From an uncultured Clostridia bacterium (GTDB taxonomy: Bacteria; Bacillota; Clostridia; Christensenellales; DTU072), in the NCBI GenBank assembly GCA_944363505.1, contig CALVUD010000002.1, positions 82,290-146,289 on the forward strand: a stretch of 64,000 nucleotides of DNA, written 5' to 3'. The first letter of the stretch is position 1. Every line of letters begins with the position of its first letter. The position numbers were made by a program, and so were the translations under genes. The notes under the pieces are model-generated. The model searched no databases and was not told where the DNA came from. It saw nothing but the letters and a program-made list of their open reading frames with translations. Positions 32,275 through 32,448 of this stretch are shown here, in pieces.

Positions 32275-32288
32275 GTTTCGTCTCCTTG

Positions 32289-32316
32289 AAAAAAGCCGCC
32301 CCTTTCGGTGCGGCTA
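32289..32316 (-). terminator. Attenuator terminator upstream of pheA
   Basis: AGCCGCACC-GAAA-GGGGCGGCT followed by a T run, directly before the pheA SD AAGGAGA. Confidence 0.85.
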
Positions 32317-32344
32317 AGTTATTGCTTTCTTTTTTTGCGCACCT

Positions 32345-32413
32345 TTACGCGTTTGCCTTTTGACAACCGATAAATCCGAAAAAGCTAAAGCTAAAGGTGA
32401 ATTCTTTTTTCAT
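32345..32413 (-). CDS. Phe-rich leader peptide (pheL-like), 22 aa
   Basis: MKKEFTFSFSFFGFIGCQKANA: 6 Phe among codons 5-14, upstream of terminator and pheA. Confidence 0.85.
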   Translation of the reverse strand: MKKEFTFSFSFFGFIGCQKANA

Positions 32414-32419
32414 AATCAA

Positions 32420-32448
32420 ATGATATTCCATTCGCTCCGTTTTGTCAA
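32420..32448 (-). promoter_or_regulatory. SigA promoter of leader-pheA
   Basis: TTGACA-17-TATCAT, 6 nt before the leader ATG. Confidence 0.75.

Follow-up and report, generated by a model that had tools for sequence, protein, structure and literature searches.

We analysed a window of 64,000 nucleotides (nt) from the genome of an uncultured Clostridia bacterium (assembly GCA_944363505.1, contig CALVUD010000002.1, positions 82,290 to 146,289), following up an earlier note on the short region that precedes the prephenate dehydratase gene pheA. This region, the pheA leader, is very likely a phenylalanine (Phe)-specific, ribosome-mediated transcription attenuator, judging from its sequence and from comparison with related loci. 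It combines a short open reading frame (ORF) rich in codons of the cognate amino acid, an intrinsic terminator, a mutually exclusive antiterminator, and the geometry of stop codon and stall sites that is expected of an attenuator. We also consider quite likely the full explanation in which, in addition, the leader ORF is leaderless (read from a transcript that has no untranslated 5' region) and the element is a Phe-only derivative of a leader with both tyrosine (Tyr) and Phe codons.

The anatomy of the leader, all of which lies on the minus strand, can be read directly from the DNA. A promoter scan of the window gave a -35 hexamer TTGACA (32448-32443) and, after a 17-nt spacer, a -10 hexamer TATCAT (32425-32420), with a score of 11 out of 12. 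Six nucleotides (TTGATT) separate the -10 hexamer from the ATG (at 32413) of the leader ORF (32345..32413), which has no Shine-Dalgarno sequence and encodes MKKEFTFSFSFFGFIGCQKANA in 22 codons followed by TAA (32347-32345). Six Phe codons, four TTT and two TTC, are packed into ten codons (codons 5-14, 32372..32401). Segment 1 (CACCUUUAGC, 32390..32399) lies over these codons and is the partner of segment 2 (UAAAGGUGCG, 32338..32347), which includes the stop codon and can pair either with segment 1 or with segment 3 (CGCACC, 32307..32312); segment 3 is at once the 5' arm of the terminator and the antiterminator partner of segment 2. Within these segments, CACCTTTA (32399-32392) is exactly complementary to TAAAGGTG (32347-32340), reading CACCUUUA and UAAAGGUG as RNA, and GGTGCG (GGUGCG as RNA, 32343-32338) is exactly complementary to CGCACC (32312-32307). 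The intrinsic terminator (32289..32315) is formed by the hairpin AGCCGCACC-GAAA-GGGGCGGCU (32315-32294), with a folding energy of -14.1 kcal/mol (ViennaRNA), and a run of six U. A simple terminator scan did not list this hairpin because an A.G mismatch makes its loop larger than 8. The U-run stands 1 nt from the Shine-Dalgarno sequence of pheA (AAGGAG, 32282..32287), and the end of the terminator stands 14 nt from the pheA ATG at 32274. Inspection thus confirmed what the earlier note had described: a TTGACA-17-TATCAT promoter ending 6 nt before an ATG that has no Shine-Dalgarno sequence, a 22-residue ORF with six Phe in ten codons, a perfect pairing of segments 1 and 2, a GGTGCG:CGCACC antiterminator, and a terminator with its U-run just ahead of the pheA Shine-Dalgarno sequence.

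The mechanism that we propose is as follows. The strong promoter, of the sigma-70 type, would start the transcript at or within 1-2 bases of the AUG of the 22-codon ORF, and translation of the ORF would thus begin on a leaderless mRNA. Given ample Phe-tRNA, the ribosome would reach the stop codon inside segment 2 and cover that segment, so that the terminator (pairing of segments 3 and 4, or 3:4) would form and transcription would end before pheA. Under a shortage of Phe-tRNA, it would stall about 25-55 nt further upstream, at the six Phe codons, and the free segment 2 (GGUGCG) would pair immediately with the newly synthesised CGCACC, the terminator's 5' arm. With its 5' arm paired in this way, the terminator could not form, and pheA would be transcribed.

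We searched 61 genomes with the pheA protein, and the search returned 30 loci. A Phe-rich ORF precedes pheA in 19 of the 30, namely in all 19 loci from the same genus that have a full-length ortholog, and in none of the 11 pheA loci from other genera; at these 11 loci, pheA lies behind an upstream coding region that we read as a putative chorismate synthase (aroC). Counting named records, the ORF was present in 8 of the 30 loci with upstream sequence, all eight from the same genus. The 19 leaders fall into three sequence groups, among which the spacers and the non-aromatic codons vary. In all of them, TTGAC[AT], a 17-nt spacer, TAnnnT and a start codon follow one another, TTGAC being invariant in the alignment, and the gap between the -10 hexamer and the start codon is 6 nt in ten loci and 7 nt in nine. 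The ORFs have 20-25 codons with 5-7 Phe codons in 19/19, and the stop codon lies within segment 2 or 6-8 nt ahead of it. Outside segments 2-4, the conserved content consists of the promoter and the aromatic codons only. The earlier note had proposed conservation of the Phe codons and of the pairings in relatives as a check of its reading. Both recur at the 19 loci, as does the spacing between promoter and ATG; because the same layout is present in every same-genus pheA locus, the leader is more than a chance arrangement. The attribution of the window to a Firmicute also held, the close relatives being gut metagenome-assembled genomes of Bacillota, Clostridia.

We then built a covariance model of the pheA leaders (R1). 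It was unmatched in three same-genus genomes, all of which lack a full-length pheA ortholog: G008 has only a distant prephenate dehydratase (33% identity), G014 has no pheA match, and G017 has a pheA fragment of 100 amino acids. A leader of the second type described below, that of aroF, is present in G017; G008 and G014 have neither type.

All three pairings, 1:2, 2:3 and 3:4, are possible in 19/19 leaders. The 2:3 antiterminators have 6-10 base pairs (bp), energies of -11 to -17 kcal/mol and loops of 19-28 nt, and the terminators range from -9 to -18 kcal/mol. In the alignment of the terminators, 93.9% of the cells are paired and six of the nine pairs have changed on both sides, a level that 0 of 500 shuffles reached. 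The core of the antiterminator (GUGCG with CGCAC) is almost invariant, and 88% of its cells are paired, compared with 25-58% when the partners were slid against each other. Such invariance is consistent with a triple constraint, segment 3 having to pair with segment 2 as well as with segment 4. A flanking pair of the antiterminator does vary, occurring as G-C, C-G, U-G and U-A, and it is mismatched in L012, L017 and L018. The 1:2 helices are in different registers in the three groups and could not be aligned; within group A, a difference between L001 and L002-L005 is a change of a Phe codon in segment 1 from UUU to UUC together with a change in segment 2 from AAA to GAA, the stop codon going from UAA to UGA. 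RNAalifold, applied to a MAFFT alignment, recovered the terminator only.

To represent the ribosome, we folded transcripts that were cut before the 3' arm of the terminator and in which the RNA was masked to 13 nt past a given Phe codon; these cut transcripts were used because masked folds of the full-length leader gave no antiterminator for the window's own sequence. For a ribosome stalled at Phe codons, 18 of the 19 leaders had 2:3 as their minimum-energy fold whichever of the two stall sites was used; in L005, this failed for a stall at the final Phe codon. Placing the ribosome at the stop codon blocked 2:3 in 19/19. These results are in line with the statement in the earlier note that stalling on the Phe codons frees segment 2.

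The leader also belongs to a wider family. A scan of the window's own genome for short ORFs adjacent to promoters gave one other clean case, outside the window (G000 C6:16483-16610, minus strand; L066, L146), in which TTGACA, 17 nt, TATACT, 6 nt and ATG are followed by an ORF encoding MKKDNLFAYAYYFYFSYGIA (five Tyr and three Phe) and a terminator. The genes downstream encode 3-deoxy-D-arabino-heptulosonate 7-phosphate (DAHP) synthase, prephenate dehydrogenase, 5-enolpyruvylshikimate-3-phosphate (EPSP) synthase and chorismate synthase (aroF-tyrA-aroA-aroC). R1 matches the MKKDNLFAYAYYFYFSYGIA leader with 49 bits (E 8.6e-6), and a model of eight aroF leaders (R2) reciprocally matches the pheA leaders with 35-52 bits; the pheA-type and the aroF-type leaders are therefore homologous. 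Phe codons stand before pheA, and Tyr and Phe codons before aroF-tyrA, so that the codons of each leader match the pathway of the genes behind it.

R2 matched 48 of the 81 genomes of the family, in 11 of its 17 genera, and gave five convincing cases in two further families among 151 sampled genomes of the order. Nearly all of the R2 matches encode Tyr/Phe-rich peptides before a DAHP synthase. No convincing aromatic ORF was found in the frame read for the rows from G030, G083, G089, G097 and G070, and the match in G108 (family f29) was rejected as false, having neither an aromatic-rich ORF nor a DAHP synthase downstream. Judged by the coordinates, the leader of several genera is on the strand of pheA and 5-6 kb ahead of it; a single leader there probably controls an aro operon whose last gene is pheA. 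In the genus of the window, pheA is separate: it follows the larA-like gene (larA, lactate racemase) and has a Phe-only leader to itself. The pheA leader thus appears to be a Phe-only derivative of the more widespread Tyr/Phe leader of the aroF-tyrA-aroA-aroC operon. A further leaderless, Phe-rich leader, MKTKNTFNFSNLFSNYFFSSDNFLRG, was found in a different genus (L145; G084 C93, 1973-2105, minus strand) before a pheA with CM_2, PDT and ACT domains; its terminator is CCACC/GGUGG and its antiterminator GUGGUU. Terminators differ across the leaders (CCGCC, CCACGC, GACCGA, CCGCAC, CCACC and others), and the segment after the stop codon changes along with them. When each segment 2 was paired with its own and with foreign terminator arms, the mean 2:3 duplex energy was -11.8 kcal/mol for the own arm and -8.0 kcal/mol for foreign arms; the own arm was the best in 11 of 30 leaders, and of 849 comparisons, only 131 had a foreign arm that equalled or surpassed the own one.

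Several observations weigh against the attenuator interpretation. The minimum-energy fold of the full-length leader, with -34.4 kcal/mol, consists of 1:2 and the terminator, and its z-score against shuffles is only -1.76, so that the single sequence is not decisive. Within the pheA set, two-sided change is confined to one pair of the antiterminator, and the observed covariation measures are reached in 119-199 of 500 shuffles; the antiterminator pairing is conserved in this set and is not proven there by covariation. In the comparison of own with foreign arms, foreign arms did as well or better in many cases for the pheA leader of G084 (19/28), the aroF leader of G002 (19/29), G096 (15/29), G087b (12/29) and G028 (12/29), and G026 is a further exception. 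The antiterminator of the window's own leader has 6 bp across a 25-nt loop, and when its full-length sequence was folded with a stalled ribosome, the terminator was still preferred; read-through would therefore have to rest on the order of synthesis, the antiterminator forming first. In the cut transcripts without a ribosome, 2:3 rather than 1:2 was folded in 15/19, so that the scheme in which a lack of translation leads to 1:2 and then to termination is unsupported at equilibrium and would need kinetics. An anti-antiterminator role of segment 1 is thus not supported by equilibrium folding.

As for initiation, we regard it as probable, on grounds of spacing and comparison, that the leader ORF of pheA is translated from a leaderless transcript that would begin at or next to A32413. 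Three lines of evidence are the basis of this reading. First, the gap between the -10 hexamer and the start codon is held at 6-7 nt in the pheA leaders and at 6 nt in 20/20 aroF leaders of the window's genus, and these 6-7 nt are A/T-rich (TTGATT, for example) and have no Shine-Dalgarno sequence. Second, homologs that do have a Shine-Dalgarno sequence lack the adjacent promoter: those of G034, G086, G036, G102, G103, G096, G033, G115 and G105, for example, have no adjacent -10 hexamer and a GGAG-type Shine-Dalgarno sequence. In other genera, this sequence reads GGAG, GAGG or AGGAG and is placed 4-9 nt ahead of the ATG. There are also homologs that have kept the leaderless promoter layout. Third, among 234 TTGACN-17-TANNNT sites in the window's own genome, 19 have a start codon (ATG or GTG) exactly 6 nt downstream, compared with 1-8 at the other gaps from 0 to 20, and 14 of these 19 open ORFs of at least 100 amino acids, compared with 0-3 at the other gaps; at gaps of 21-30, the range expected for short leaders that bear a Shine-Dalgarno sequence, the number was 0-6. 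From this excess at gap 6, leaderless mRNAs seem to be common in the window's organism.

The Tyr/Phe leaders of other genera and families thus occur in two forms, one with a Shine-Dalgarno sequence and no adjacent -10 hexamer (L105, L113, L120, L123, L131, L129, L134, L139 and L141), and the other with the promoter layout of a leaderless ORF (L090, L092, L116, L137 and L138).

The same Phe attenuator might instead be carried on a longer transcript, coming from the larA-like gene or from an upstream start, with translation from an ATG at 32431 or by internal initiation; we regard this as unlikely, although less so than the other alternatives. The ATG at 32431 is in frame and has GGAG 3 nt before it, and homologous leaders in other genera use Shine-Dalgarno sequences. 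We found no terminator between the larA-like gene, which ends at 32463, and the leader promoter. In two of four RNA-library runs, contigs bridge the promoter and the start codon (X3, 32034-32686; X4, 32023-32574), covering, within 32023-32686, part of pheA, the leader, the promoter and the 3' end of the larA-like gene. In view of the missing terminator and these contigs, read-through transcripts in which the leader ORF is internal may exist. The start codon, ATG in 18/19 leaders, is GTG in L002, a point against our explanation. However, the public RNA libraries consist of assembled Logan contigs, from which no start, end, strand or level can be read, and DNA carried in the libraries would give the same bridging contigs; parts of the stretch that are uncovered in X8 and X9 carry no evidential weight. 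The ATG at 32431 and its GGAG lie inside the promoter spacer and are not conserved, none being listed for L003, L007 and L028 and only a TTG for L002, and, with a varying spacer, both hexamers and the gap of 6-7 nt are constant in 19/19. In several of the nine loci of group C (L011 to L016), what appeared by eye to be a hairpin and a T-run directly precedes the promoter. That start codons are in excess at gap 6 throughout the genome likewise suggests that initiation takes place at such a spacing.

Another alternative is that the product of the ORF is a small hydrophobic protein with a function of its own, or that the ORF remains untranslated, that the hairpin ends a small transcript or the larA transcript, and that pheA is expressed from elsewhere. 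The peptide is indeed hydrophobic and conserved in part (FxFxFF), and the z-score of the fold is unexceptional. We nevertheless consider this very improbable. The 1 nt between the U-run and the pheA Shine-Dalgarno sequence leaves no room for a promoter; the element is always found with pheA or an aro operon and, with both models, is absent from G008 and G014. The codon bias follows the pathway (Phe for pheA, Tyr and Phe for aroF-tyrA), the non-aromatic residues vary freely, and the antiterminator tracks the sequence of the terminator across genera.

It is equally improbable that an attenuator at this position is set by a factor other than the ribosome (a T-box, a riboswitch or an RNA-binding regulator), since, although Firmicutes often use T-boxes and RNA-binding proteins for amino-acid genes (see also PMC2965389), no Rfam family reached its gathering score in the window, no T-box (RF00230) was found even at E<=10 in 31000-34000, and only the promoter and the aromatic codons are conserved outside segments 2-4. 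The T-box search was also negative for the window as a whole, in agreement with the earlier note, which had seen no T-box motif. The permissive Rfam rows that overlap the leader were a weak Phe_leader (RF01859; 32287-32410, minus strand, 20.2 bits, E 4.1, against a gathering score of 55) and isrK (17.7 bits), both at the level of chance. The only T-box in the genome (G000 C10:33564-33802, minus strand, 108 bits; L031) is upstream of an ORF of 505 amino acids with a domain of pyridoxal 5'-phosphate-dependent enzymes (PALP).

Attenuation by leader peptides is textbook knowledge in Proteobacteria and is documented in Actinobacteria, and Rfam includes a Lactococcus leu/phe leader motif. The pheA leader resembles the pheL-pheA region of Escherichia coli in its short Phe-rich ORF, its 1:2/2:3/3:4 hairpins, its terminator just before pheA and the type of enzyme encoded. 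It differs in its Clostridia host, in the absence of a Shine-Dalgarno sequence, in the promoter that abuts the start codon, and in the arrangement of the Phe codons, which alternate with others (FTFSFSFFGF) and form no run. Only the terminator and A/U-rich stretches align with the Rfam Phe_leader. The pheL/trpL architecture proposed in the earlier note is therefore correct as to layout and does not extend to membership in Phe_leader, for which the score was far below the gathering score given above.

The pheL leader has been reported only from Gammaproteobacteria, with 53 genes (PMC3082878). In Corynebacterium glutamicum, an aroR leader with Phe-Tyr-Phe precedes aroF and a trpL attenuator is known (PMC11802643, PMC3890552), and the ilvBNC leader has been discussed as leaderless (PMC11857589). 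The Clostridia leaders share with these a Gram-positive host, a Phe/Tyr leader before a DAHP synthase operon and, as proposed here, an increase of transcription upon stalling and leaderless leader ORFs. Unlike AroR, which has one Phe-Tyr-Phe triplet, the Clostridia leaders have 7-9 aromatic codons, and there is a separate Phe-only copy at pheA; C. glutamicum belongs to another phylum, Actinobacteria. Leaderless polycysteine short ORFs of mycobacteria are amino-acid-responsive attenuators of the downstream operon (bioRxiv 10.1101/834739), but they concern cysteine and Actinobacteria, and the abstract names no pair of intrinsic terminator and antiterminator. Within Firmicutes, where T-box control is regarded as the norm and leader-peptide attenuation as a rare exception, bacilli have a histidine leader before hisS paralogs and hisZ, described as a 'regular' leader peptide and as such an exception (PMC2965389), and Staphylococcus aureus has a leucine-rich ilv-leu attenuator peptide (PMC5794164). 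Like the pheA leader, these represent ribosome-mediated attenuation where T-boxes are the rule; they differ in amino acid and genes, and none is described as leaderless in the parts of the sources concerned.

The mechanism proposed here is thus of a known kind, and what is new is the family, its lineage and the dimorphism between leaderless and Shine-Dalgarno-led initiation. This family of aromatic-amino-acid leaders in gut Clostridia was previously undescribed and is absent from Rfam; a literature search, which covered few subscription journals, found no publication on leader peptides for Phe or Tyr from Clostridia. With moderate confidence, we suggest a broader interpretation, in which the synthesis (and possibly the uptake) of aromatic amino acids would be controlled across the order by one family of leader-peptide attenuators instead of T-boxes, and in which initiation would have switched between its two modes within the family. 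On its recruitment to pheA, by then separated from the aro operon, the leader would have been re-set from Tyr and Phe to Phe alone. The family would then include the first leaderless attenuators of the ribosome-mediated kind to be described in Firmicutes, in a lineage in which leaderless mRNAs are seemingly common.

The family offers a natural experiment in three respects: the Phe-only and the Tyr/Phe leaders are paralogous and have different targets; from one genus to another, antiterminators change together with terminators; and homologs differ in being leaderless or Shine-Dalgarno-led. It can now be tested how the specificity of an attenuator evolves, and whether a leaderless ORF initiated by 70S ribosomes is coupled to RNA polymerase as in the classical case. 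Knowledge of the family also improves the annotation of many gut metagenome-assembled genomes, in which these ORFs of 20-25 codons are uncalled, and it draws attention to the suggested frequency of leaderless mRNAs in the window's lineage.

Two other Tyr-rich leaders, MKRITANAFYYYYYYFRNRVI (L124; G087 C52:3048-3179, minus strand) and MKKANLYFYYYFYFKS (L118; G062 C68:5533-5649), precede ORFs that start like lipoprotein signal peptides. From this context, the ORFs may encode the binding protein of a transporter of aromatic amino acids. A scan of the window's own genome for other leader peptides (histidine, tryptophan, leucine, threonine and others) before terminators gave a long and noisy list in which only the two aromatic leaders were convincing.

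The window's genome (G000) comprises 1.87 Mb in 12 contigs, with 51% G+C. The product of pheA (31135..32274, minus strand) has 379 amino acids, and a profile search identified its PDT (184.7 bits) and ACT (26.9 bits) domains. Its N-terminal 100 residues (31975-32274, minus strand) gave a weak match to CM_2, the chorismate mutase type II domain (21.1 bits, against a Pfam cut-off of 27), and the chorismate mutase domain of this protein may be divergent. The pheA ortholog of G084 matches CM_2 at 64 bits. In the coding region of the larA-like gene, a match to CRISPR-DR60 (32681-32717, plus strand; 28.6 bits, cut-off 45) is present in a single copy and was taken as chance. Upstream of that gene, three ORFs of 292, 291 and 635 amino acids (33715-35465 and 35484-37391, minus strand) had no Pfam match at E<=0.001. 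Just downstream of pheA lies one of the genes with a start codon at gap 6, encoding an alpha/beta-hydrolase of 313 amino acids (30040-30981, minus strand; start at 30981).

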